A model generated the notes under the pieces. That model ran no database searches, was not told where the DNA came from, and saw only the letters and a list, made by a program, of their open reading frames with translations. From an uncultured Legionellales bacterium (GTDB lineage Bacteria > Pseudomonadota > Gammaproteobacteria > Eutrophobiales > Eutrophobiaceae), in assembly GCA_913045195.1 (NCBI GenBank), contig CAJWQR010000003.1, positions 187-64,186 of the forward strand: a stretch of 64,000 nt of DNA. The letters are read 5' to 3'. The translations under genes and the position numbers were made by a program. Numbering within the stretch: the first letter of the stretch is position 1; each line of letters opens with the position of its first letter. Below, in pieces: positions 2,724 to 58,038 of this stretch.

Positions 2724-2929
2724 AAAGATTTGGTAAGTCAAAGAGGCCATTATGAATATTGCTTAAGAACCATGCAAGAAAATTGATAAAAACATAAATA
2801 TGAAATATGGCAAATCTTTATATGTATCAATTCTGTACATTCATCTCATCATCACTTAACCTTAGTGTGGCTGAGGAAATATCAGCTCAATTTTTAAAAA
2901 CAAAATTAATCATCCGAGGTTATATTGGA

Positions 2930-4060
2930 ATGGGCGTTCCACTAATTCAGCAATACAGAGTTGGTAAATACATTATTGGGGGGAAACTACGTGGTATCAA
3001 AAAATATCCTTTAGTATTAATGTTAGAACCTCTTTTTCGCTGTAACTTAGCCTGCTCTGGGTGTGGAAAAATCGATTACCCTAAAGAAATTCTTGATAAA
3101 CGTTTAAGTTTTGATGAATGTATGCAGGCCATTGATGAATGTGGCGCTCCTATTGTTTCCATCGCTGGGGGTGAACCACTCATACACAAAGAAATGACAC
3201 ATATCGTAAATGGGTTTATAAAACGTAAGAAATTTGTGTACCTTTGCACAAATGCGATGCTTTTAAAAAAACACATAGATATGTATGAACCATCACCTTA
3301 TTTAACTTTCTCAATTCATTTGGACGGAAATAAAGAACGTCACGATGCCTCCGTTTGTTTGGATGGTGTTTTCGAAAAATGTATTAGTGTTATAAAAATT
3401 GCTCGCAAAAAAGGTTTTCGTGTCACTATAAATTGCACATTATTTCAGGGAGAAAGTGCTAGAGAAGTAGCAGAGTTCTTAGATATGGCTATGGAATTAG
3501 GTGTTGAAGGAGTAACTATATCTCCTGGCTATAGTTACGAAAGAGCGCCGAAGCAAGATGTATTTTTAAAAAATAAAGAGAGTAAGCAATTATTCCGAAA
3601 TATATTCAAATTAAATACTCATAAGACCTGGCGCTTTAATCAATCATCACTATATCTTGATTTCCTTGCGGGTAACCAAACTTATCAATGTACGCCATGG
3701 GGCAATCCAACTCGTAATGTCTTTGGCTGGCAAAAACCATGTTACCTACTAGTAGGTGAAGGCTATGCTCCAACATTTTCTGCGTTGATACAAGAAACAG
3801 CATGGGAAAATTATGGTTCCGGAAAAAACCCAAAGTGTACTAATTGCATGGTGCATTGCGGATACGAAGCAACAGCCGTTAACGATACATTCAATCACCC
3901 ATTAAAAGCGTTGGGTGTATTTTTAAAAGGACCGAAAACAGATGGTGAGATGGCTCCAGAGCTGCCGGTGTTATATAACGATGATGAAATAACTAAACCA
4001 AAACTGATAGCGAACAATGAGATGTCCAATAATAACGGCAAAAATAAACAAGTTGCCTGA
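2930..4060 (+). CDS. hpnH: hopanoid biosynthesis-associated radical SAM protein HpnH (adenosylhopane synthase family)
   Basis: KYPLVLMLEPLFRCNLACSGCGKIDYP is the radical SAM CxxxCxxC with the characteristic HpnH context. It is followed by SIAGGEPLIHKEM, FVYLCTNAMLL, CTPWGNPTRNVFGWQKPCYLL and the C-terminal CxxC MVHCGYEAT. The start is placed at the Met of MGVPLIQQ; the ORF track extends upstream to 2807. Confidence 0.85.
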   Translation: MGVPLIQQYRVGKYIIGGKLRGIKKYPLVLMLEPLFRCNLACSGCGKIDYPKEILDKRLSFDECMQAIDECGAPIVSIAGGEPLIHKEMTHIVNGFIKRKKFVYLCTNAMLLKKHIDMYEPSPYLTFSIHLDGNKERHDASVCLDGVFEKCISVIKIARKKGFRVTINCTLFQGESAREVAEFLDMAMELGVEGVTISPGYSYERAPKQDVFLKNKESKQLFRNIFKLNTHKTWRFNQSSLYLDFLAGNQTYQCTPWGNPTRNVFGWQKPCYLLVGEGYAPTFSALIQETAWENYGSGKNPKCTNCMVHCGYEATAVNDTFNHPLKALGVFLKGPKTDGEMAPELPVLYNDDEITKPKLIANNEMSNNNGKNKQVA

Positions 4061-5175
4061 TGGAACTACTATTCCTGGCAACAATGCTAGGACTTCTAAT
4101 ATGGGCAACGATTCTCTTACTGCCTTCACGCCCCTATAGCACTCGAGAATCTCTAGCAGTTCTCTCAGCAGAAAAAACAACCTTATCAGAGGTTACGGTA
4201 CTCATTCCAGCAAGAAATGAGGCATCAACAATAACCGAAACACTCGCGGCACTTAAAGCACAAGATTCCCAATTGAAAGTTATTCTGGTCGATGATCAAT
4301 CAACTGATAATACAATCAAATATGCTAATTCCGCTAAATTAGATAATTTATTGATTCTATCTGGGGCTAAATTACCTAAGGGATGGAGTGGTAAGTTATG
4401 GGCATTAGAACAAGGACGTAAATATGTTCAAACTCGTTATCTTGTCTTAGTTGATGCAGATATCATTTTAAAACCCGGCTTAATAAAAGCAATATTAACG
4501 AAAGCAAAAAAGAATGATATAAAATTATTATCATTGATGGCTCATCTTAGAATGTCATCATTCTGGGAAATAATATTAATGCCTGCTTTTATCTTTTTTT
4601 TCAAACTAATCTATCCATTTCGTCTTTCAAATTCATCCAACTCAAAAATAGCTGCAGCAGCAGGAGGATGTATTCTTCTAGAAACAGAAATTCTCAAAGA
4701 ATTGGGGGGGTTTAAATCTATTCAGAATGCACTAATTGACGATTGCGCGCTTGCAAAAAAGGTCAAGCAAAGCGGCTATAAAACTTGGCTGGGCTTAACT
4801 CACTCCGTAATTAGTACTCGTCGCTATGATAAACTTTCAATAATACGGGAGATGATTACAAGAACTGCGTACACCCAGCTCAATTATTCTCCATTATTGC
4901 TTTTGTTTTGCACAATTTTAATGATTATTGCTTTTTTAATTCCAGTTACCGCTATATTACAAACACAATCAATAATAATAATAATGGGTTTAATCACGCT
5001 TTGTATACAAGCTATATGTTATTTACCGATATTAAGATACTATTCATTAAACCCTCTGTGCGCTATCTTATTACCATTTATTGGTATGCTTTATTTATTT
5101 TTTACATTAAATTCAGCTTATTGTTACTATTTTAGTAAGGGCATATGCTGGAAAGACCGATATTACAAAAATTGA
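4060..5175 (+). CDS. family 2 glycosyltransferase with C-terminal multi-TM region (hopene-associated HpnB-like)
   Basis: VLIPARNEA...LVDDQSTDNT...GKLWALEQG...LVLVDADI is a GT2 DxD-type catalytic domain, followed by hydrophobic helices. Its start codon overlaps the hpnH stop by 1 nt (TGATG). The HpnB assignment rests on adjacency and size only. Confidence 0.65.
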   Translation: MELLFLATMLGLLIWATILLLPSRPYSTRESLAVLSAEKTTLSEVTVLIPARNEASTITETLAALKAQDSQLKVILVDDQSTDNTIKYANSAKLDNLLILSGAKLPKGWSGKLWALEQGRKYVQTRYLVLVDADIILKPGLIKAILTKAKKNDIKLLSLMAHLRMSSFWEIILMPAFIFFFKLIYPFRLSNSSNSKIAAAAGGCILLETEILKELGGFKSIQNALIDDCALAKKVKQSGYKTWLGLTHSVISTRRYDKLSIIREMITRTAYTQLNYSPLLLLFCTILMIIAFLIPVTAILQTQSIIIIMGLITLCIQAICYLPILRYYSLNPLCAILLPFIGMLYLFFTLNSAYCYYFSKGICWKDRYYKN

Positions 5176-5287
5176 AAAAAGAGCAGAAAGTAATTAAATT
5201 TGTTTCTTATTATTTATGATTACACTAATGAACAATTTCTTAAAAATAATATTGAAAAAAAAATGCTTCCGATTTATATCGAAGAGC

Positions 5288-5878
5288 ATGCTTAGTTCTT
5301 ACTTAATATTTTTTACTTTTTCATTATATGCAGGAACTCAATATGAACAAGCGATACAGGAACCTATAAACCAATTACATGAAACGCTTATTAACATCAT
5401 GGTAATCTCGGATACAACAAGCTTTGAGGAACGTTACACATATTTAGAGCCCGTTATAAATAAAAATTTTGATACAGCATTAATTTCAAAAGTCATTCTT
5501 GGTAGATATTGGAAATCAATTGACGAGAAAATCAAGGTTAGATTTATTAATCTGTTTAATAGGTTAACAATTTCTACTTATATAAGTCGTTTCAACTCAT
5601 ATGATAATCAGATATTCAAAAATATATCTATTGAGCAATTAAAAGAAAATAGATATCTAGTAAAAACTGAATTCCTAAGGCTAAAGGAAAAACCAATTTC
5701 TTTTAATTATATCATCCAAAAAAATGGCAAAAAATGGAGAATTATCAGTGTTATTGCTAATGGAATTAATGATCTTTCTCTTAAAAGAGCAGAATATGCG
5801 GCAATAATTAAAAAAGATGGGTTTGAAGTATTAGTAAAAAAGCTGGAACAGAAAATCTACGATTTACAGCCAAATTAG
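5288..5878 (+). CDS. MlaC/Ttg2D-family periplasmic lipid-binding protein (HpnM-like)
   Basis: Signal peptide MLSSYLIFFTFSLYA. VISDTTSFEERYTYLEPVINKNFDTALISKVILGRYWKSIDEKIKVRFINLF fits the toluene-tolerance Ttg2/MlaC family. A GAAGAG SD-like hexamer lies just upstream of this ATG; the longest ORF starts at 5216. Confidence 0.7.
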   Translation: MLSSYLIFFTFSLYAGTQYEQAIQEPINQLHETLINIMVISDTTSFEERYTYLEPVINKNFDTALISKVILGRYWKSIDEKIKVRFINLFNRLTISTYISRFNSYDNQIFKNISIEQLKENRYLVKTEFLRLKEKPISFNYIIQKNGKKWRIISVIANGINDLSLKRAEYAAIIKKDGFEVLVKKLEQKIYDLQPN

Positions 5879-5969
5879 AGCATAAGTCATCAAAAAAATT
5901 GTCTCAGACTTAAAGGTATGTCAATATTTGATGTAGGTTTATGTGGATTTCTATATAAAGAGGTAATCG

Positions 5970-6752
5970 ATGGTTTCTTTTTATTATCTTAAAGTATTAA
6001 AGCAAATAATTTTTCTTGCTTTGTTTTGTGTTTTGGTGGGTTGTGCGACAACACAAACCACGGATAAATATACAAAAGACGACTCATTGGAACCGGCAAA
6101 TCGAGTTTTCTTTGATATTAACGAAACACTTGATCAGGCCTTAATTAAGCCTGTCGCGGAAGTCTACGCTGATGTAACCCCAAATTTTATAAGAACTAGC
6201 ATCACAAATTTCTTCGAAAATCTCGCTTATCTTAATGTTATTCTGAATGATTTATTGCAAGGAAAGATAAACCAGGGATTATCAGATACTGTACGTTTCG
6301 TGGCTAATTCAACAATGGGAATTGGGGGTCTTTTTGATGTTGCCACGCCAATGGGCCTACCGGAAAATGATGAAGACTTTGGGCAAACCCTTGCAGTTTG
6401 GGGTGTCGATGAAGGGTCTTATCTTTATTTGCCGTTTTTTGGTCCAAATACTGTCCGCGACTCCACGGATTTTGTTCCGAGCACACTATTAAATCCATTT
6501 TTCTACATATCAAGCACAATTCTATTTCCTGTAACCGCAATTAATGCAGTAAATAAACGTGCCAATTTACTTGAAGCATCCAATATACGTGATGAAGCTG
6601 CCGTTGACCCATATTCGTTTACTCGTGAAGCATATTTACAACAACGTGAATATCTTATTCATGATGGTAATCCGCCAATTACTGGCTATGATGATGTTTT
6701 TAGTGTTGACGATGAACAAAATGATGGAAGTGGTGTATTGAAAATTGAATAA
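5970..6752 (+). CDS. mlaA: MlaA/VacJ-family outer-membrane lipoprotein
   Basis: Lipobox LVGC after the signal peptide. NRVFFDINETLDQALIKPVAEVYADVTP...NSTMGIGGLFDVATPMGLPENDEDFGQTLAVWGVDEGSYLYLPFFGPNTVRD is the VacJ signature region. An AAGAGG SD precedes the start. Confidence 0.8.
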   Translation: MVSFYYLKVLKQIIFLALFCVLVGCATTQTTDKYTKDDSLEPANRVFFDINETLDQALIKPVAEVYADVTPNFIRTSITNFFENLAYLNVILNDLLQGKINQGLSDTVRFVANSTMGIGGLFDVATPMGLPENDEDFGQTLAVWGVDEGSYLYLPFFGPNTVRDSTDFVPSTLLNPFFYISSTILFPVTAINAVNKRANLLEASNIRDEAAVDPYSFTREAYLQQREYLIHDGNPPITGYDDVFSVDDEQNDGSGVLKIE

Positions 6753-6858
6753 GATTAATACTGATTGACAATAATATCGCTCTAACAAAATTTTCCTGCA
6801 TTGAAATTTAAAGTTTGATTAATGCAGTAAGTACCTCAAGTCTGTTCTTTAAAAGTTT

Positions 6859-8403
6859 ATGAGTGAAGAAATCTTAGTTAATGTAACCACCCAAGAAACA
6901 CGTGTAGCTGTTATTGAAAATGGCGTACTACAAGAAATCCATATTGAACGTTCGCAAAAGCGAGGGGTCGTTGGAAATATTTACAAAGGGAGAGTTTCTC
7001 GAGTGTTACCAGGAATGCAAGCAGCTTTTATTGATATAGGATTGGAGCGTACTGGTTTTTTGCAAACTTCGGATATTAATAATACTAATATTGATGGTGA
7101 TTTTGAACAAATTGAAAATAATAATGAGCAAAGAATAGAATCAATTATTAAAGAGAATGAAGAATTACTTGTTCAAGTAATTAAAGATCCGATTGGAAAC
7201 AAAGGTGCTAGGCTAACAACGCGTCTTTCAATTCCATCAAGATATATTGTGCTCACTCCAAAGTATCCATTTATAGGTATTTCCAAAAAAATTGGAAATG
7301 ATGATGAAGAAAAACGACTTAAAAACATTATTTTGAGTTATCTTTCTGGTGTTGAAGAACTAGCTTTTGCAATTAAAGATAATGTAGTTTTACATAAGTC
7401 CCTATCCGAACCTAAAATATTACATAAGGGTGGATATATAATTAGAACAGCTGCAGCATTTATCCCGGCAGAAGAAATTTATAGAGATATTGAATTTCTT
7501 AGAAAGATCTGGGATTCAACACTCTGTTTATCTAAAAAATTATCATCGCCAAATAGGGTTTTTGAAGATCTACCTTTACAAATACGAGTGATACGTGATT
7601 TAGTTCAGAAAAATATTAAAAAAATAAGAATCGATTCTAAAGAAACTTATGAACAAACAATAAAATTCTCGAAAGATTTTATTCCTGAATTTTTAAATAA
7701 AATCGAATATTACAATGAACATCATCCCATACTCGATTTATACTCTGTAGAGGATGAAATACAACATGCTCTTAATAGAAAGGTAAAATTAAAATCTACT
7801 GGTTATTTAATAATTGATCAAACTGAAGCAATGACTACAATCGATGTTAATACTGGTGCATTTGTTGGTCGTAACAATCAAGAAGAGACAATATATAAAA
7901 CAAACCTAGAGGCTGCTTATACAATTTCTCGACAACTTCGACTACGTAATCTCGGTGGTATTATTATTATTGATTTTATTGATATGCAAGATCCTGAACA
8001 TAAACAACGGGTTCTAAGCACACTTCAGAAACATGTTGGTCAAGACCCTTCTAAAACGTCAATCAGTGAAATAACATCGCTTGGACTAGTGCAATTAACT
8101 CGAAAACGTACGAGAGAAAGCCTTGAGCACATCCTTTGCGAAGATTGTCCTACTTGTTATGGAAAAGGATTAATAAAAACACCAGAGACTGTGTGTTTTG
8201 AGATTTATAGAGAAATTCAACGTGAAGTAAGCCAATTCGATGCAAATAAACTACTGGTTGTTGCCTCGCAAACTGTTATTGATATCCTACTAAGTGATGA
8301 ATCAACAAATGTAATAGAACTCGAATCTGTCATTGGAAGAAAAATTAACTTCCAGACAGAAACTTCATATGCACAGGAACAATTCGATATAGTCTTACTT
8401 TAA
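6859..8403 (+). CDS. rng: ribonuclease G (Rne/Rng family, S1 domain + catalytic domain)
   Basis: N-terminal S1 region VNVTTQETRVAVIENGVLQEIHIERSQKRGVVGNIYKGRVSRVLPGMQAAFIDIGLERTGFL. Size of 514 aa and the synteny rng-yhdP as in E. coli. Confidence 0.9.
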   Translation: MSEEILVNVTTQETRVAVIENGVLQEIHIERSQKRGVVGNIYKGRVSRVLPGMQAAFIDIGLERTGFLQTSDINNTNIDGDFEQIENNNEQRIESIIKENEELLVQVIKDPIGNKGARLTTRLSIPSRYIVLTPKYPFIGISKKIGNDDEEKRLKNIILSYLSGVEELAFAIKDNVVLHKSLSEPKILHKGGYIIRTAAAFIPAEEIYRDIEFLRKIWDSTLCLSKKLSSPNRVFEDLPLQIRVIRDLVQKNIKKIRIDSKETYEQTIKFSKDFIPEFLNKIEYYNEHHPILDLYSVEDEIQHALNRKVKLKSTGYLIIDQTEAMTTIDVNTGAFVGRNNQEETIYKTNLEAAYTISRQLRLRNLGGIIIIDFIDMQDPEHKQRVLSTLQKHVGQDPSKTSISEITSLGLVQLTRKRTRESLEHILCEDCPTCYGKGLIKTPETVCFEIYREIQREVSQFDANKLLVVASQTVIDILLSDESTNVIELESVIGRKINFQTETSYAQEQFDIVLL

Positions 8404-8410
8404 TTAATAT

Positions 8411-11400
8411 ATGTTAAGAAATTCTAAAATAACTTCGCATCATTTCTTTTTTTACTCCTTAGTATTAACAATTTTACTAGCAATACTATTTGTTGTCAGT
8501 ATTCGACATACATTACCAAAAATTAACATCTATAAAAGTGAAATAGAATCTATTATTAGTGATTACATGGGTTACTCGGTTAACATTAATACAATAAATG
8601 CTGAATGGAAAGGCTGGACACCCAACTTATATTTAGAGAATATTAAATTACTGGATGAAAGAAATAATAATGAAATAATTAAATTTCACTCTGCTCGGAT
8701 TGGAATTAATCTTGTTGAATCTATCTCAAAAGGTGTAGTTACTCCATCCTATATACAAATTTCAGGATTAAATCTCAATGTTTATCGAAATAAAGATGGC
8801 GTAATCTCAATAAAAAATGATAATTCACTAAAAACTAATATGATTAATCGATCTGGTCTAGCGGAATGGTTATTTACTCAAAAATACCTGATACTCAAGA
8901 ACGTAAATTTAGTTTGGAATGATGAAAATATTAATATTGTAAGAAAAGAGTTTAATAATATTTCTCTTGAACTAAAAACAGATAAAAAAAATACTCGAAT
9001 TGAATTAAATACAGCTCTATCACAACAAGAAAAGCAATTATTTAAAATAAAGGCAAATATAACTGGAAATATATTAACATCAATGTGGCAAGGTGATATT
9101 AATTTTGAATTAATTAATATTGACCCCGCGCGACTTACTAATAAATTATATGCTTTTAGTGATGGTGGTCTATCAAATGCAAAAATATCAACTAGATGGG
9201 AAAATGCAAAGCTGATAAATTTTGATGGTGCATTGGAATATTCAAACTTTTCATCAATTACTGAAGAATCTCTTTTATTAGTAAAAAATATTAATTTTAA
9301 TCTAAATGGAAGTCGAGAATTAAATAAAGATTGGTCATTAAATTTAATTTTACATAATTTAGAAACTGCAAATGGTAAATGGCCTGCGTCTAATTATCAA
9401 TTTGAATTTATTAAAGACTCTTCAAATGATAACTATCTATATAAGGGATATCTTACTTTTTTAAGATTAGAAGATATTTTACCTTTTATTATAACAACTA
9501 ATATTCTACCTAATAATATATTTCAAAAGTTAGATTTAGAATCTATTTCAGGTGAAATAAATAATCTAAATATTGAAATTGATCATATCAACGAAGAATC
9601 TATAAAAATAAAAGATCTTAATGCAAATTTTGATAAATTAAGTATTATTTCTTATGATCAATCTAGTTCTATTAGTGGTTTAAAAGGTGCGTTGGCCGCC
9701 AATAATAACTCTATAGATGTAAGCATTGATAGTGACTTTACAAAAATCAAATTTGACAAACTCTATACTGATGAGAAGATTTTCTCTAAGTTAACTGGGG
9801 AGCTTGAATTAAATTATGATAAATTATTAATTAATAATCTTAAAATAATTTTCGATGGTATATCGCTTACTTCAAATGGAAATATTCTGATTAACGAGGA
9901 TCCTACTTATATTGATTTAAATTTAACTTTAGATGAATCAAATATTGAATATTTTTCAACACTTATACCAGATAAAACTAACCCAGAATTATATAAATGG
10001 CTTAATAATTCATTACTTGGAGGAAAAATTTTATCTGCTGATATGGTTTATAAGGGTTATGCTAAAGATTTTCTACTTAATAATTCAAAAAGTAATTTTA
10101 AAGCAATTTTTAATGTAAGTGATACAAATCTTGATTACAACAGAAATTGGCCTCCAATTGATAATCTTACTGCTGAAATAATTATTGAAAATGACAATCT
10201 ATTAGCCAATATCAGTTCTGGATATATATTTAATGCAGAAATTAGTAATACAACTGCGAAAATTAAACACATCAGCGGAAACAATCATAATGTTATTGTT
10301 AATACTCAGATATACAGTCATATGAATGATCTAAAAAAATTCATCATTCAAAGCCCATTAAATGAAGACCCAACTCTTATCAAATATATAAATAATATAA
10401 CAGGAAATATTGATATTAATCTTAATTTAGATATCCCGCTTGGTCTTGAGAAAACAAAATTTAATGGTAAGGTTTCATTAAATAATGCATCAATCGAGTC
10501 AGGTTTGCCTGGGCTTGCACTTGAGAATGTAAATGGTGATATAAATTTTAGTGTTAATGAAATATGGGCAAATGATATTGATGCAATTTATATAGGAAGC
10601 CCCATAAAACTAACAATTCCAACTATTAATTATAAAAATTTAGATTTTTTACCATTCAATATCTCTGGTGTTGCTAATAAAATATTTATAATTGATCAAA
10701 TGACAAGTTTATTTCCTAATCTTTATAATAATATCGAAAATATAAAAACCTATTTTTCCGGCGAAAGCGAATGGACTTTTTCCCTTAGCGAGTCGGAGAA
10801 CAATTCTCAATTAGATGATAAAAGAATTGAATTTAAATCAGATTTATATGGTATTGAGATTAACTTACCTCCTCCCTTAAAAAAAGATAAAAATGAATTA
10901 CGTCCCTTAATAATTGAAACTAATATTAGTAACTTATTAATAGATAAATTTAGTATATATTATAATAATGAAATATTTACTGATATATTTATTGATAATA
11001 CAAAAGATTTCTTTGTTAAAAATATAAATATTGGCTTAGAAACAAAACATCCTGAAAATAAAACCGATAATAGCATATCCATTCAAGGTAGCATGAACAG
11101 CCTAATTTTTACTGACTGGGCTAATTTTATAAATACATCAAAAACTAATAATAAAGTAAACCAGGGTAAAACTTTCTTAGGGAAAATTAATGTAAAGAAT
11201 CTAGAAATAATTAATAAAAATTTTAATGATGTTGATATTAATTTTTCTAGTTCTAATAGTAATAAAGATTGGAATATTTTATTTGATAGTGAAAAAATAA
11301 GAGGAGAAGCATGGTATAAGAAAAAATTTATTAATAAAAATGACTATCTATATCTAAATTTTGAAACCCTTTCTTTAAGCGAAAATCAAAATACTGAAAA

Positions 11401-12250
11401 TTTAACTACCTATAAAATTCATAATATTCCTGAGCTCGAGATTAGTATAAATAACTTTATATATAAAAATAATGAATTAGGACATTTAATCTTAAAAACG
11501 ACTAACTTAGATAATGTAATTAATATTGATAAATTAAGTTTTAAAAAACCTGGTGTTAATATTAATGCCAATGGATTTTGGTCAAGTATTGACGAAATAG
11601 ATAAATCTGAGCTCTATGTCAAATTAGACTCTGACTCAATAATGAAAATGTTTGATACATTCAATTATGCTGCTACTAATATAAAAGATGCTAAGACATT
11701 GCTTGAATTCAATATAAACTGGGATGATTCGCCATTGAATTTTGCGATGGAGAATCTAAATGGTCAAATAAATATGAATATAGAAAAAGGTCAATTTCTT
11801 GATATTGAACAAAAAGCTGGCAAATTATTCGGATTACTCAGTATTCAGGCGTTACCAAGAAGACTGTCACTTGATTTCGCTGACCTTTTTAACGAAGGAT
11901 TTGCCTTCGATACAATCAAAGGAAATTTTAATCTAGAAAGAGGTCAGGCTTATACTAATAATTTACAAATGATAGGTCCATCTGGAGATATTATGATCAG
12001 CGGGCGTACCGGACTGGTGACAGAAGACTATGATCAAATTGCAACTGTAATTCCCAAAGTATCTGATAGCCTACCCTTAGCAAGTGCGTTATTTGGTCCT
12101 GTTGGTGTTGGTGTTGGTGCAGTATTATTCTTTGCAGGAGAGCTATTTGAGTCTATTCCAGAAAATATCGATAAGATCTTAACTCAGCAATACAGCATCA
12201 AAGGTAGCTGGGAAAACCCAGATATTGAGAAAATAAATACGAATGAATAA
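8411..12250 (+). CDS. yhdP: YhdP-family (AsmA-like, TIGR02099) large envelope lipid-transport protein
   Basis: 1279-aa protein with an N-terminal TM anchor, Asn/Ile-rich repetitive beta-rich body and a conserved C-terminal region (GQINMNIEKGQFLDIEQKAGKLFGLLSIQALPRRLSLDF...GPVGVGVGAVLFFAGELF). It sits immediately downstream of rng as in Enterobacteria. Confidence 0.8.
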   Translation: MLRNSKITSHHFFFYSLVLTILLAILFVVSIRHTLPKINIYKSEIESIISDYMGYSVNINTINAEWKGWTPNLYLENIKLLDERNNNEIIKFHSARIGINLVESISKGVVTPSYIQISGLNLNVYRNKDGVISIKNDNSLKTNMINRSGLAEWLFTQKYLILKNVNLVWNDENINIVRKEFNNISLELKTDKKNTRIELNTALSQQEKQLFKIKANITGNILTSMWQGDINFELINIDPARLTNKLYAFSDGGLSNAKISTRWENAKLINFDGALEYSNFSSITEESLLLVKNINFNLNGSRELNKDWSLNLILHNLETANGKWPASNYQFEFIKDSSNDNYLYKGYLTFLRLEDILPFIITTNILPNNIFQKLDLESISGEINNLNIEIDHINEESIKIKDLNANFDKLSIISYDQSSSISGLKGALAANNNSIDVSIDSDFTKIKFDKLYTDEKIFSKLTGELELNYDKLLINNLKIIFDGISLTSNGNILINEDPTYIDLNLTLDESNIEYFSTLIPDKTNPELYKWLNNSLLGGKILSADMVYKGYAKDFLLNNSKSNFKAIFNVSDTNLDYNRNWPPIDNLTAEIIIENDNLLANISSGYIFNAEISNTTAKIKHISGNNHNVIVNTQIYSHMNDLKKFIIQSPLNEDPTLIKYINNITGNIDINLNLDIPLGLEKTKFNGKVSLNNASIESGLPGLALENVNGDINFSVNEIWANDIDAIYIGSPIKLTIPTINYKNLDFLPFNISGVANKIFIIDQMTSLFPNLYNNIENIKTYFSGESEWTFSLSESENNSQLDDKRIEFKSDLYGIEINLPPPLKKDKNELRPLIIETNISNLLIDKFSIYYNNEIFTDIFIDNTKDFFVKNINIGLETKHPENKTDNSISIQGSMNSLIFTDWANFINTSKTNNKVNQGKTFLGKINVKNLEIINKNFNDVDINFSSSNSNKDWNILFDSEKIRGEAWYKKKFINKNDYLYLNFETLSLSENQNTENLTTYKIHNIPELEISINNFIYKNNELGHLILKTTNLDNVINIDKLSFKKPGVNINANGFWSSIDEIDKSELYVKLDSDSIMKMFDTFNYAATNIKDAKTLLEFNINWDDSPLNFAMENLNGQINMNIEKGQFLDIEQKAGKLFGLLSIQALPRRLSLDFADLFNEGFAFDTIKGNFNLERGQAYTNNLQMIGPSGDIMISGRTGLVTEDYDQIATVIPKVSDSLPLASALFGPVGVGVGAVLFFAGELFESIPENIDKILTQQYSIKGSWENPDIEKINTNE

Positions 12251-51298: not shown

Positions 51299-52702
<1,404 letters not shown>

Positions 52703-52726: not shown

Positions 52727-53242
52727 ATGCATGATCTTTCTAAATTTAGATTGGGCAGATCTCCTGATGAAATACTAACTATAGAAACTAGGCAGGAAAC
52801 CATTAATTCAGCACTAGAACTTACAAAACAATCAACACATAAACTCACAATTTTTTCTAAAGACCTTGAGCCTTGTGTTTATAACCAACCGGATTTTCTA
52901 GAAGCTCTAAAAAATTTAGCACTTATTGGGCGTCATGTTCAAATTCGTATCTTAGTTTCGAAGATTGAGTCTATTATAAGTGTGGGGCATGGACTACTAA
53001 ATTTAGCATCAAGACTACCTAGCTATATTGAATTACGTAAGATTTCACTGGAATATAAAAACTTCAACAAAGCAATTCTTATTGCAGATGAAATTGGTTA
53101 TCTCTATCGTGAAAATGCTGGCCGCTATGAGGGTAATATTAATTTTAATAGCAGGCGGGAATGCAAAAACTACTTAGATACATTCCAAGAGATGTGGGAA
53201 ACAGCATTACCTGATAAAAATTTACGTAAAATACATTTATGA
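52727..53242 (+). CDS. hypothetical cytoplasmic protein, no recognisable family
   Basis: 171-aa ORF with good coding character and no signal peptide or TM helix. Its stop overlaps the next gene's start by 4 nt (ATGA), so the two are translationally coupled. Confidence 0.5.
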   Translation: MHDLSKFRLGRSPDEILTIETRQETINSALELTKQSTHKLTIFSKDLEPCVYNQPDFLEALKNLALIGRHVQIRILVSKIESIISVGHGLLNLASRLPSYIELRKISLEYKNFNKAILIADEIGYLYRENAGRYEGNINFNSRRECKNYLDTFQEMWETALPDKNLRKIHL

Positions 53243-54102
53243 AAATCTCAACCTTAATTATCCTTTTTTTACTTGTAATAAGTACCTCTCTATCCTTCGC
53301 TGAATCAATGAAAATTGAAATTATTCCCATGAAAAACCGAATGGTCGAGGAAGTTATTCCGATTATTAAACCGCTTATTGTAAAAGGAGGTACGGTAACT
53401 GGAATGAACAATCAATTAATAGTCAAAACAACACTTTCTAATATTCGACTAATAAAATCTATTCTTATACAAATAGATAATGCTCCGCGTAAATTACTGA
53501 TTAGTGTGACAAGAAATAATAATAATAAATTTAATAATGAAGAAGGAGGATTCTCGATAAAATATGATTCGAAGAATATTAATATCACATCTCCCGACAC
53601 AGGTGAAAAGGGCATTGTAGTGCAAAATAAAAATGATAAAGGAGATGTGATTCGTTATAGAAAATCACATGAAGAAACTGAGAGCCAAGAAAATAATATT
53701 TTCTACGTCAATACGCTTGAGGGAAATCCTGCTTTTATTAATACAGGTCAACTAATACCTATTAGAAACCAAACGACTGTTGTTACATCTGGAGCGGTTG
53801 TTGTTCAGGATAATATTGAACATCGTAATGTTAGTTCGGGTTTTTATATTACACCAAAACTACGAGGTGATAATGTAGTGCTTACAGTTTCTCCTCGCTT
53901 TGCGCAACTTAACCAAAACGAAAAGAATACTATAAATGTCCAAAATATCGATACTACAGTGCACGGTAAACTTGGTGAGTGGATATCGATAGGTGGAATT
54001 GACCGAAGTCTTAGAGCCTCAGACAAAAGAAACCTCATTAATAAGGAACAATATAATGAAGAAAAAAGTAGTATTTTGATTAAAGTTGATGAGATTAAAT
54101 AA
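53239..54102 (+). CDS. exported protein with secretin-N (NolW-like) domain and a short secretin-like beta domain (mini-secretin-like)
   Basis: Signal peptide MKISTLIILFLLVISTSLSFA. IPMKNRMVEEVIPIIKPLIV...NNQLIVKTTLSNIRLIKSILIQIDNAPRKLLISV parallels the secretin N3 domain and the N3-to-secretin junction (..LD.PRRQVLIEA..). The later SSGFYITPKLRGDNVVLTVSP...HGKLGEWISIGGI resembles core secretin-domain strands. It lacks N0/N1 and the C-terminal vP.LgdiP.lG.LF motif. Confidence 0.5.
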   Translation: MKISTLIILFLLVISTSLSFAESMKIEIIPMKNRMVEEVIPIIKPLIVKGGTVTGMNNQLIVKTTLSNIRLIKSILIQIDNAPRKLLISVTRNNNNKFNNEEGGFSIKYDSKNINITSPDTGEKGIVVQNKNDKGDVIRYRKSHEETESQENNIFYVNTLEGNPAFINTGQLIPIRNQTTVVTSGAVVVQDNIEHRNVSSGFYITPKLRGDNVVLTVSPRFAQLNQNEKNTINVQNIDTTVHGKLGEWISIGGIDRSLRASDKRNLINKEQYNEEKSSILIKVDEIK

Positions 54103-54177: not shown

Positions 54178-57100
54178 ATGTTGATACTGCAAGGTTGTAA
54201 TGCACTATCTAAATTTCGTGTTAATAAATTACTTTCAACAGTACAAGCTTACATACCCGAAATAATTTCACTCCAAACATGCTTTATTCACTTTGTGAAT
54301 GAAAATAAGCCTCTAAATGAAGATGAACAAGCGCAGCTTGAGGTATTATTAAATTCTAGAATAGATGGTGATGTTTCAAAAAACCACAATCAATTAATTG
54401 TCATTCCCAGGCCAGGAACAATTTCTCCATGGTCAAGCAAAGCAAGTAATATTATCCATAATTCTGGTTTAAATAAAATAATACGTGTCGAACGTGGAAT
54501 AATTTATGTATTCGATATATCTAATGGAGAAAATTTAACAAGCGAAAAAATTAAAAAGATAGCTCATTTTCTTCATGACAGAATGACCGAAATTATTATT
54601 GAAAAAAAGAATAAAGCAGAAGAATTATTCTTAACAACTACACCAACTCCACTAGAAAATATTGATGTTTTAAACAAAGGTATAGATGAGCTGAAAAAAG
54701 CAAACTTAAATATGGGTTTAGCTTTATCAGAAGATGAAATATCTTTTTTATTCTTTGCTTTTGAAAAATTAAAAAGAAATCCAACCGATGTAGAGCTAAT
54801 GATGTTTGCGCAAGCCAACTCAGAGCATTGTCGTCATAAAATTTTTAATGCTAAATGGATAATAGATAATATTGAAAAAGAAAACTCTCTGTTTTCTATG
54901 ATTCGTCAGACATATAATGAAAATTCAAAAAATATTCTTTCTGCTTATCATGATAATGCCGCTGTAATGAAAGGTTTTTCTGGTTTACGATTTTTTGTAG
55001 ATCCCAATAAACACGAATATCAGTATAAAAACGAAGCTATTCACTTGCTCATGAAAGTTGAGACGCATAATCATCCGACTGCAATTTCACCTTACTCTGG
55101 TGCTGCAACCGGTTCGGGAGGTGAAATACGAGATGAAGCCGCAACGGGGCAAGGAGCCAAACCAAAAGCTGGTCTAACTGGTTTTGCTGTTTCAAATCTA
55201 AATATTACAGGTTACGAACAACCCTGGGAAAAAGATAACGGAAAACCCGAACGTATTGTTTCTGCGCTCGATATTATGATTCAGGGTCCAATTGGAGCCG
55301 CATCTTATAATAACGAATTTGGTCGTCCTGCTCTTTGCGGTTTTTTTCGCACCTATGAGCAACGTGAATCTAGTTCTCTTGTCTATGGCTATCACAAACC
55401 TATTATGCTTGCTGGTGGATATGGAATGATTTGTGAGTCTCATGTTAAAAAACAAATTATACCAAATGGGGCAAAATTAATTGTACTAGGGGGACCAGCT
55501 ATGTTGATTGGTCTTGGTGGTGGTGCTGCTTCATCAATGGCTTCAGGAATCAGCGATGCTTCACTTGATTTTGCTTCAGTTCAACGAGGTAACGCAGAAA
55601 TGCAACGTCGTTGCCAAGAAGTAATTGATGGATGTTGGTCACTTGGCAATAACAATCCAATTCTTAGTATTCATGATGTTGGTGCGGGAGGCCTTTCAAA
55701 TGCTATGCCAGAACTGGTTAGTGCAAGTAGTCGTGGCGCAAAACTAAAACTTCGTGAAATACCTAATGATGAATTAAGTATGTCGCCAATGGGTATTTGG
55801 TGTAATGAATCTCAAGAACGTTATGTATTAGCGATTACTACTGAAAAAATTGAACAATTTGAACAACTTTGTAAACGAGAACGTGCGCCATATGCGATTA
55901 TTGGTGATGCTACAAAAAATCAGGAATTAATTCTAGACGATTCATATTTTGATAATCAGGCAATTAATATTCCAATGTCCATACTGCTTGGTGAAATGCC
56001 AAAAACAACACAAAATGTTGTTAGTAGATCTGTTTCGCATAAAAATTTTGAAATATCATCATTAAAAATAAAAGAGGTAATTAATCGCATCCTTCGATTA
56101 CCAGCAGTTGCTAGCAAAAGTTTCTTAATTACAATTGGTGATCGCTCTATCTCTGGTTTGGTTGTTCGTGATCAGATGGTAGGCCCTTGGCAAGTACCTG
56201 TTGCTGATTGTGCTATTACCAGCTCGTCATATTACGACTATGTTGGAGAGGCAATGGCAATTGGTGAACGTAGTCCTATTGCCATAATTGATGCCCCTGC
56301 TTCAGGCCGAATGGCGTTATCAGAGGCTATCTTAAATATAACGGCAGCGCGCATTCTCAAAATTGAAGATATTAGTCTTTCTGCAAACTGGATGGCGGCA
56401 TGTGGTGAACCTGGAGAAGATGTAAAATTATATAATACCGTGTCGGCTATCAGCGAGTTATGTAAAGAATTAGGTATCTGTATTCCCGTCGGAAAAGATT
56501 CTCTTTCAATGAGCACTGTATGGTCAGATGAGCAAAAACAAAAAAAAGTAGTAGCGCCTTTATCATTAAACATATCCGCGTTCGCAAAAGTAATCGATGT
56601 TAGGCAATCATTGACACCGCAATTACTAAAAGATGAAAGTTCAGTATTACTATTTATAGATTTGGCCAATGGTAAAAAACGGCTTGGTGGATCAGCTTTG
56701 TGCCAAGTATATGGAAACACAGGTAGTGAAGCTCCGAATCTAGAAGATACAAAAATATTAACTGGATTCTTTCAGTCACTACAGATTCTCAATGAATCAA
56801 GTTTAATAAATGCCTACCACGACCGCTCCGATGGTGGTCTCTTTATTACTTTATGTGAAATGGCATTTGCAGGGCATACCGGAATTAATATCGATCTTAA
56901 TTTATCTGGAGATTTAATTGAGAACTTATTTAATGAAGAATTAGGGGTGATTATACAAATAAACAAAAGTAATGAGGAACATGTAAAAAGAACATTTGTA
57001 CAATCGGGTATAAATGAAAAAATGATCCACACTATAGGATCAATAAATAAAGATTATAAATTTAATCTAAAATTTAATGGTAAAAAAATATTGAACGCTT

Positions 57101-58038
57101 CGATAGCTGAATTCCATAAAAAATGGACAGAAACAAGCTACCAAATACAAGCACTCAGAGACAATCCTGAATGCGCTAAACAAGAGTACGAAAATATTAC
57201 TAATAAAAATGATTCCGGAATTTCTATTAGTACAACTTTTAGGCTTGAAAAAAATACAATATCTATAAACAAAGGTGTCAATCCAAAAATAGCTGTACTT
57301 AGAGAACAAGGAGTAAATGGACAGCTTGAAATGGCTGCTGCTTTTGATCGTGTCGGATTTGATTGTATTGATGTTCACATGCAAGATTTGATAGATAATC
57401 AAATAAAACTTAATTCATTTAATGCTCTAGTTGCTTGCGGAGGTTTCTCCTATGGTGATGTTCTTGGCGCAGGTGGTGGCTGGGCAAAAACCATTCTATA
57501 TAACGATGAACTCAGAAAAATGTTTGAAGATTTCTTTAACCGCAAAGACACATTTGGGCTCGGGGTATGTAATGGCTGTCAAATGATGTCTCAACTCCGT
57601 AATTTGGTGCCTGGCGCATCTTCATGGCCCGACTTTGTAAAAAATTACTCAGAACAATTTGAAGCTAGACTCGTAATGGTAGAAGTGATGGACTCTCCTT
57701 CTGTATTTTTCAAAGACATGGCTGGCTCTCAAATCCCAATTGTAGTCGCTCATGGAGAGGGGCGTATTCTGAAAGCGCCTATGAAAGAACACTCGTATGC
57801 GGTTATGCGTTACATTGATAATAGGGGAAATATGACCGAAAAATACCCACATAACCCTAATGGATCGAAATATGGACTTACTGCTTTTACCAATAAAGAT
57901 GGACGTTTTACAATAATGATGCCGCATCCAGAGCGCGTTTTTTTAACTAAACAATTCTCTTGGTTTCCACAAGAATGGAAAAATGAATATAGTCCTTGGA
58001 TAAAATTATTTCTGAATGCAAGAGAATGGCTAAATTAA
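54178..58038 (+). CDS. purL: phosphoribosylformylglycinamidine synthase (single-chain large PurL)
   Basis: 1286 aa. N-terminus colinear with E. coli PurL ([10 protein letters not shown] ... [13 protein letters not shown]). C-terminal glutaminase domain with the GVCNGCQMM active-site Cys. Confidence 0.95.

Follow-up and report, generated by a model that had tools for sequence, protein, structure and literature searches.

What do the two genes encode that an uncultured Legionellales bacterium carries between the conserved housekeeping genes purB and purL, and why are they kept together at this place? The locus lies in a stretch of 64,000 nucleotides (contig CAJWQR010000003.1, positions 187 to 64,186), which is referred to here as the window. 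The first gene (52727..53242, ATG start, as read in the list of open reading frames, or ORFs, and in the sequence) is located on the forward strand, like its parts and the pur neighbours described below, and codes for a protein of 171 amino acids (aa) belonging to the Pfam family DUF7931. The second (53239..54102, ATG start) codes for a precursor of 287 aa, corresponding to about 266 aa in the mature protein. The latter protein is exported and represents a minimal form within the secretin superfamily, named here mini-secretin, and its core is essentially complete, with the first barrel strand, both gates, and the last strands. The two genes form a vertically inherited, conserved chromosomal pair from a family that is large, well conserved, and so far unstudied, in which the mini-secretin departs from the defining membrane-insertion features of secretins. 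With regard to function, we regard it as somewhat probable that the minimal secretin of this conserved pair acts as a self-contained, closed-by-default gated ring of the envelope, with DUF7931 as a non-catalytic partner.

An earlier reading of the window, made by a model from the letters and the ORF list (hereafter the sequence-only reading), had reported two ATGA-overlapping ORFs between purB and purL. Their coordinates were confirmed in the ORF list and in the sequence, where the stop codon of DUF7931 and the start codon of the mini-secretin overlap at 53239..53242.

A conserved chromosomal gene pair

The sequence-only reading regarded the pair as an orphan unit inserted between the two pur genes. 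The analysis of related genomes revealed instead a conserved unit, present at the same position in dozens of near and distant Gammaproteobacteria and devoid of any compositional or repeat signature of insertion. This refutes the insertion claim on a ground that the sequence-only reading had itself named. An identical mini-secretin is encoded on 12 metagenome contigs, which share the order AKR-purB-DUF7931-mini-secretin-purL-smr-ispF-ispD-ftsB, and this arrangement is retained around relatives at 43-47% identity, whose contigs measure 2.3 and 4.4 Mb. In a collection with one genome per species, at least 546 stretches harbour a mini-secretin relative. A neighbourhood survey by tblastn of the best 80 loci of these showed that about 45 loci from Gammaproteobacteria have the order purB-DUF7931-mini-secretin-purL(-smr), with identities as low as 31%. 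In some loci, JmjC/RoxA and GNAT genes are found between purB and DUF7931, giving the order purB-JmjC-GNAT-DUF7931-secretin in L005 and L055. When the scan of metagenomes was seeded with DUF7931, 32 loci were recovered, nearly all of them with a mini-secretin directly downstream. Named carriers are Thiobacter aerophilum and Sedimenticola sp., the latter represented by metagenome-assembled genomes.

The mini-secretin homology search yielded 259 homologues of near-constant length, named 'secretin N-terminal domain-containing protein', 'GspD/PulD', 'HofQ', or 'hypothetical protein' in their sources. In a representative library of 1.84 billion proteins, 802 clusters (50% identity) were matched at E <= 1e-30, and the 150 best clusters listed are mostly 260-310 aa long. 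Compared with a locus that is 93-94% identical (L007), the ratio of nonsynonymous to synonymous substitution rates (dN/dS) is 0.14 for purB, 0.18 for DUF7931, and 0.32 for the mini-secretin. Since there are hundreds of homologues of the same length and dN/dS is below 1, both ORFs can be taken as genuine genes that did not arise by chance.

Two other origins of the pair were considered and rejected. A recent insertion or island is ruled out by the GC content, which stays between 0.29 and 0.40 throughout the region without a step, by flanking repeats that reach chance level only, and by the conserved synteny. A plasmid-borne unit was rejected as well, since a tblastn search of the plasmids in PLSDB gave no match.

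The mini-secretin and its domains

The 287-aa protein had been proposed to be a very small secretin-family protein, and profile and structure searches, which could equally have pointed to an unrelated family, bear this out. It matches the Pfam Secretin family (PF00263) with 37.5 bits for a cut-off of 27.5, residues 157-257 covering profile positions 16-125 out of 169; the C-terminal quarter of the model is left unmatched and, as judged by eye, corresponds to the part bearing the amphipathic helical loop (AHL). Among full-length profiles, the closest is PHROG_1012, M13 protein IV (pIV), which aligns with residues 23-259 (E = 7.6e-14). A family profile built from an alignment of 30 mini-secretin relatives was compared with the PDB: the core (residues 148-259) matches GspD 430-543, with PilQ and f1 pIV as weaker matches, and the whole XcpQ chain is matched with E = 2.7e-10, the best stretch being its N1 domain (108-170). 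In the NCBIfam scan, the only matches were PilQ and NucS, both sub-threshold. When the AlphaFold2 monomer model was compared with the PDB using Foldseek, all 34 matches at E <= 1e-3 were secretins (best E = 4.8e-8), including InvG, PilQ, GspD, pIV, and MxiD, and the highest target-normalised template modelling (TM) score was obtained with f1 pIV. The low values of these TM-scores (0.32-0.39) are due to the extended shape of the monomer model and its moderate confidence.

The precursor begins with a predicted Sec signal peptide (53239..53301, residues 1-21), cleaved after SFA at MKISTLIILFLLVISTSLSFA/ES, and the presence of such a peptide on this protein and its absence from the 171-aa partner are both in line with the sequence-only reading. 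A hydrophobic N-terminus is kept across 82 related loci, followed in many of them by A-E-S/x-M. A single ring-building Secretin_N domain of the N1/N3 type (53308..53487, residues 24-83) comes directly after the signal peptide and is modelled as strand-helix-strand-strand-helix. Pfam Secretin_N, a domain recorded for most homologues, scores 23.8 bits here over residues 27-84, under the cut-off of 28.2. That the protein possesses one such domain and no N0 had been anticipated.

The remaining part of the protein was mapped by aligning the family profile with M13 pIV (V00604), using the published domain map of f1 pIV (PMC8563730). The peptides DNAPRKLLISV, SGFYITPKLRGDNVVLTVSP, and GEWISIGGI, quoted in the sequence-only reading, are all present. 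The first of them covers residues 80-90 and had been compared with the start of the secretin core, and its PRKLLISV part indeed aligns with the first outer-barrel strand of pIV. A region equivalent to the beta-lip follows (53521..53694, residues 95-152), with 58 residues versus about 56 in pIV. Gate 1 extends from G170 to G201 (53746..53841) in the profile alignment; these two residues, invariant in the 30-sequence alignment, align with Gly267 and Gly297 of pIV, which are the Gate 1 hinge residues of that protein (PMC8563730). The segment SGFYITPKLRGDNVVLTVSP spans residues 200-219, and the Gate 2 equivalent (53896..53946, approximately residues 220-236) aligns with pIV Asp321-Asn335 (PMC8563730), its boundaries being approximate. 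GEWISIGGI (residues 246-254) corresponds to GQTLLLGGL in pIV. The protein terminates with a conserved strand, SSILIKVDEIK (54067..54099), modelled by AlphaFold2 at residues 277-286. The ending ..[LF][IV]KV[DE]E[IV]K is kept across the family, and by our own reading of the sequences this strand would correspond to the last strand of pIV, ..STLYVLVKATIV.

The mini-secretin thus resembles f1/M13 pIV (PDB 7OFH) in passing from N3 straight into a compact core, with a short lip and neither a cap gate nor an S-domain; their alignment spans N3 to the last barrel strand ahead of the AHL, and the Gate 1 hinge glycines are shared. Could it then be a domesticated or remnant pIV gene of a filamentous phage? 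The best full-length profile match, the top target-normalised TM-score, and a lip length resembling that of phage secretins (PMC8563730) are all in favour of such an origin. However, no family member was found on the viral contigs of IMG/VR, neither Zot/pI-like nor other phage genes are adjacent, and the location of the gene on the chromosome, among core genes, is stable across classes. The proteins also differ: the phage-encoded pIV carries an N0 domain and a 19-residue linker that dock to pI/pXI (PMC8563730), an AHL with the motif VPFLSKIPLIGLLF, and a far less charged lip, whereas the chromosomal mini-secretin has about 140 residues fewer and lacks both N0 and the AHL. A phage ancestry of this kind therefore appears very improbable.

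Similarities with GspD/PulD/XcpQ of type II secretion systems (T2SS) are also apparent, the N-domain matching XcpQ N1 and the core GspD 430-543. Unlike the mini-secretin, GspD possesses the N0-N3 domains, a pilotin-binding S-domain, and the AHL, in many cases with a cap gate in addition; its gene lies in gsp operons.

Docking and membrane elements

The N0 domain docks canonical secretins on an inner-membrane platform, and the S-domain and lipobox serve pilotin or lipid targeting. The mini-secretin has none of these elements: the mature protein begins two residues ahead of the N3-type domain, leaving no N0, and terminates at the last barrel strand, leaving no S-domain. The lipobox cysteine is absent too, and a lipobox-like motif occurs in just 4 of 401 family members.

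The sequence-only reading had also noticed the absence of a C-terminal P.LG.LF motif, which proved to be that of the AHL. The pattern P.[LIVMF]..[LIVM]P.[LIVMF]G.[LIVMF]F, loosened forms included, is found in none of the 401 family members, but in the comparators pIV, Escherichia coli GspD, and HofQ. A polar linker of 22 residues (54001..54066, residues 255-276) replaces it, with a median hydropathy of -1.55 (mean Kyte-Doolittle value, KD) and 27% charged residues (D/E/K/R). The lip-equivalent region is charged as well: 34% with a KD of -1.52 in the window protein, and 30% and -1.01 as the family median (383 members). The corresponding values are 14% and +0.11 for pIV, 10% and -0.24 for GspD, and 21% and -0.20 for HofQ, these being three comparators only, for a region delimited by alignment. 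The AHL has been described as occurring in every structurally characterised secretin, as a signature of the family, and as essential to membrane insertion (PMC6532946, PMC8134430). As the AHL is absent and the lip charged, outer-membrane insertion of the conventional type is doubtful for the mini-secretin.

Such losses raise the question of whether the protein is a decayed secretin, as had been suggested, namely a functionless remnant of a full-length one. It is short, devoid of N0, S-domain, and AHL, and its dN/dS exceeds that of purB (0.32 versus 0.14). Decay is nevertheless effectively refuted by the conservation observed family-wide: the length of about 287 aa is constant over hundreds of divergent clusters, the gate-hinge glycines are invariant, the C-terminus is conserved, the frames are intact, and a dN/dS well under 1 attests to purifying selection.

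The claim that the protein would be smaller than any characterised secretin holds in comparison with f1 pIV, with its 405 mature residues (PMC8563730), and with the E. coli proteins HofQ, of 412 aa, and GspD, of 650 aa, but a truncated mitochondrial GspD has already been characterised (PMC8134430). The latter, from jakobids and heteroloboseans, naturally lacks N0-N3 and the S-domain and oligomerises (PMC8134430); it co-occurs with GspE, GspF, and GspG. The mini-secretin displays the opposite pattern, since it retains N3 and the full core and loses the AHL. With regard to engineered secretins, PulD28-42/259-660 (N3+C+S) assembles normally in vitro, multimerises, and inserts, and the absence of N0-N2 leaves PulD assembly in vivo unaffected (PMC4604470). 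Because the N3+C+S form of PulD multimerises and inserts correctly, the mini-secretin architecture can be considered close to the known minimal assembly unit.

The DUF7931 protein

No family had been named for the 171-aa protein by the sequence-only reading. It proved to be a member of Pfam DUF7931 (PF25559), with E = 2e-41 and 141.6 bits for a cut-off of 27, residues 22-168 matching profile positions 2-148 out of 149. The AlphaFold2 model is confident (predicted local distance difference test score, pLDDT, of 89.7; predicted TM-score of 0.87), and from this model the protein is assigned a phospholipase-D (PLD)-superfamily fold. Foldseek matches comprise the C-terminal domain of TrmBL2, NucT of Helicobacter pylori, Nuc of Salmonella, FAM83, and Zucchini (E = 5e-8 to 1e-4, probability 1.0, TM-scores of about 0.6-0.7), as well as PLDs and PssA. 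Comparison with PDB sequences gave noise only, PADLOC, which covers defence systems, matched neither protein of the pair, and PHROG gave no match for DUF7931.

Among the proteins sharing this fold, Nuc, NucT, and Zucchini are catalytic, whereas the C-terminal domain of TrmB/TrmBL2 and FAM83 are not. Unlike the catalytic PLD proteins, DUF7931 lacks the HxK(x)4D(x)6GSxN (HKD) motif, the equivalent strand being F-N114-K-A-I-L-I-A-D121. The position of the HKD His is occupied by N114, which is variable (S, T, H, L, D) across 76 diverse homologues, and that of the Lys by A116, which is Ala or Val in DUF7931 homologues; this correspondence was assigned by eye, from motif and secondary structure only. 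The family has conserved residues of its own, including H88, D121, and R128; together with L47, P49, F140, and W157, these are at least 95% conserved in the 76 homologues. In the L116 locus, the otherwise near-invariant His88 is replaced by Asn. Because PLD-like modules without catalytic activity (TrmB family, FAM83) are among the best structural matches, we infer a binding rather than hydrolytic role for DUF7931. No paper mentioning DUF7931 was found in the literature, and the HKD-less PLD fold and the pairing with the mini-secretin would represent its first structural assignment and first genomic association, respectively.

Possible coupling of the two genes and the pur context

The pair is preceded by purB (51323..52702), identified by its Pfam Lyase_1 and ASL_C domains, and followed by purL (54178..58038), which carries the Pfam FGAR-AT domains. 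The gap between purB and DUF7931 measures 24 nt and that between the mini-secretin and purL 75 nt. Consensus scans detected no promoter-like or terminator-like site in either gap, which is weak evidence in both directions. The start of purB is ambiguous (51323-51331): the longest ORF, from GTG 51323, encodes 459 aa, and the gene call on an identical metagenome contig gives 457 aa, i.e., a start two codons later.

A 4-nt NTGA overlap joins the two genes in about 67 of the 82 loci carrying both, over a range of 30-100% identity, and such an overlap, read from sequence, is consistent with translational coupling. Homologues are paired between purB and purL in dozens of Gammaproteobacteria, but not in the loci of Betaproteobacteria or in L092 and L116.

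The position of the pair between two pur genes suggests another function, the scavenging of nucleic acids or purines, in which a secretin-type pore would admit extracellular DNA or nucleotides, as do HofQ and PilQ, and a PLD/Nuc-like partner would handle them, the pair being kept with purB-purL for purine supply. The location is conserved across Gammaproteobacteria, purB, DUF7931, and the mini-secretin follow one another without an intervening terminator-like site, and nucleases (NucT, Nuc, Zucchini) are among the fold matches of DUF7931. In addition, E. coli HofQ is annotated as 'DNA utilization protein'. On the other hand, DUF7931 has neither the HxK motif nor a signal peptide, its best fold matches include the non-catalytic TrmBL2 and FAM83, and in Betaproteobacteria the mini-secretin is encoded away from the pur genes and without DUF7931. 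No PurR-box-like site was detected with up to 3 mismatches allowed, and an Rfam scan of the whole 64 kb returned no family at gathering score, riboswitches included (no dedicated tRNA scan was made). Finally, a tight pur operon is made less likely by opposite-strand, toxin-antitoxin-like insertions ahead of purL in related loci. All in all, scavenging seems quite unlikely to be the function of the pair.

These insertions in the mini-secretin/purL gap are pairs of genes found in L011 (9234-9824), L017 (7890-8486), L100 (5549-6139), L018 (9000-9583), and L025 (4664-5247). Judged by eye, without a scan of family libraries, they resemble toxin-antitoxin modules (MazF/PemK-like with an antitoxin, or HicA/HicB-like). 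Insertions seem to be favoured at this junction, a probable hot spot, and since the inserted genes lie on the opposite strand, purL is probably transcribed independently from its own promoter.

Proposed function of the pair

In the function that we favour, the mini-secretin would probably oligomerise like other secretins, by analogy with which about 12-15 subunits can be expected to form a gated ring with a double wall. This ring would probably represent a closed-by-default conduit or gate of the outer envelope, working alone. Because both membrane-contacting elements are missing or polar, it may be located beneath the outer membrane or peripherally in it. DUF7931 would most likely act as a non-catalytic partner binding a ligand or a protein and produced in fixed proportion with the mini-secretin, and could be dispensable in some lineages, such as those of the Betaproteobacteria loci without an adjacent copy. 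The ring probably works apart from the T2SS, the type III secretion system (T3SS), type IV pili (T4P), Tad, and phage machines, since the protein lacks N0 and no machinery genes lie nearby.

To our knowledge, all characterised secretins serve T2SS, T3SS, T4P/Tad, competence, or filamentous-phage export machines. This would be in keeping with the mini-secretin being an accessory or alternative ring of a T4P, competence, or T2SS machine encoded elsewhere, with N0-type docking provided in trans. The names 'GspD/PulD' and 'HofQ' given to homologues agree with this possibility, and a split architecture has a precedent in the mitochondrial GspD, which is separated from its N-domains (PMC8134430). 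However, in the more than 100 related loci that were examined, no machinery gene of this kind was found at a distance of up to about 7-10 kb, and the neighbours are housekeeping genes that differ by class, in the present case in a low-GC (about 0.29-0.40) core-gene window. The window itself had been said to contain no other T2SS, T4P, or Tad genes, and this was corroborated by a Pfam scan of about 40 ORFs, with about a dozen short ORFs outside the scan; all the ORFs scanned are housekeeping genes. We consequently view the attachment of the ring to a distant machine as unlikely.

Several observations weigh against the self-contained ring with a DUF7931 partner. The ring is proposed from a monomer model and from analogy only, and that model has a pLDDT of 60 overall, with 80-89 in the N-domain and less than 50 in the lip and the linker. 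By analogy with secretins in which the AHL mediates insertion, a protein devoid of it may form no membrane pore at all. A partner system may also exist elsewhere in the genome, our view being limited to the 64-kb window. As for the partnership, 31 loci, mostly from Betaproteobacteria (Burkholderiales, Rhodocyclales), have a mini-secretin with no DUF7931, purB, or purL nearby, and conversely L092 and L116 carry DUF7931 without a mini-secretin. Moreover, the 4-nt overlap may reflect genome compaction rather than partnership, since in L074 the mini-secretin gene overlaps lysA in the same way.

With regard to these loci, DUF7931 and the purL gene behind it are 82 nt apart in L092 (4001-4599), and L116 (3962-6153) shows the succession purB, DUF7931, a Nudix-like gene, and an mnmA-like gene, read by eye from translations. 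In L074 (5745-8703, Arenicellales), the gene for a mini-secretin of 300 aa overlaps the gene before it, lysA-like as judged by eye, and an M48 peptidase gene after it, by 4 nt each.

On a broader scale, we tentatively propose that the family constitutes a machine-independent, housekeeping class of secretin-fold proteins, forming a periplasmic or peripheral gated ring, rather than a conventional outer-membrane pore, with a pseudo-PLD partner in Gammaproteobacteria, present in hundreds of species and probably including Pseudomonas aeruginosa PA2633, a candidate member. The family is set apart by a retained gate, the loss of docking domain, pilotin handle, and AHL alike, a core-gene setting, and a distribution over Gamma- and Betaproteobacteria, and it points to an undescribed envelope function. 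If the ring forms, it would provide a natural case near the minimal secretin assembly unit, against which the requirement for the AHL can be tested.

The possible P. aeruginosa member deserves attention. We suspect that PA2632/PA2633, which come after purB (PA2629), may correspond to this pair. The locus number of PA2633, four genes past purB, would fit the order seen in L005 and L055, which makes it a lead only. In a homology search from the GC-rich L055 relative, no Pseudomonas protein was among the best 120 matches listed. A proteomics study based on surface shaving (PMC8959810) lists PA2633 (Q9I0K5) in one of its tables, as a 'Secretin_N domain-containing protein'. Otherwise, PA2632, PA2633, and Q9I0K5 were encountered in gene lists or in the label of a neighbouring small RNA, PA2633.1, and no functional study was found. 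Literature searches for minimal, orphan, or AHL-less secretins retrieved no paper on the mini-secretin family, and 'secretin N-terminal domain-containing protein' led to one unrelated Vibrio transcriptome paper. If the membership of PA2633 is confirmed, genetics and cryo-electron microscopy would be possible at once in P. aeruginosa.

Neighbouring genes

No conserved third partner was found across the loci of Gammaproteobacteria, Burkholderiales, Rhodocyclales, and Arenicellales. In Burkholderiales, the order is [MltB-like]-[patatin-like]-NlpC/P60 (opposite strand)-secretin-DinG-like helicase, and in the loci without DUF7931, DinG is present in 23 and NlpC/P60 in 20 out of 31 (L047-L085). Several of these Burkholderiales neighbours are cell-wall or lipid hydrolases. 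Other neighbours are AFG1 in Rhodocyclales, and lysA and M48 in Arenicellales. In L120/L121 (5946-11666), a family member of 305 aa, found on 16 contigs, comes after purB and DUF7931, and its gene adjoins a convergent gene cluster comprising ExbB/MotA and TonB, once each, and ExbD twice.

At some distance from the pair, positions 2807-12250 of the window encode a radical-SAM protein with a DUF3463 domain and a family-2 glycosyltransferase; homologues of MlaC and MlaA come next, together with RNase G and YhdP. This represents a run of envelope-lipid genes within an otherwise housekeeping window, in which the DUF3463 radical-SAM protein resembles the hopanoid enzyme HpnH.

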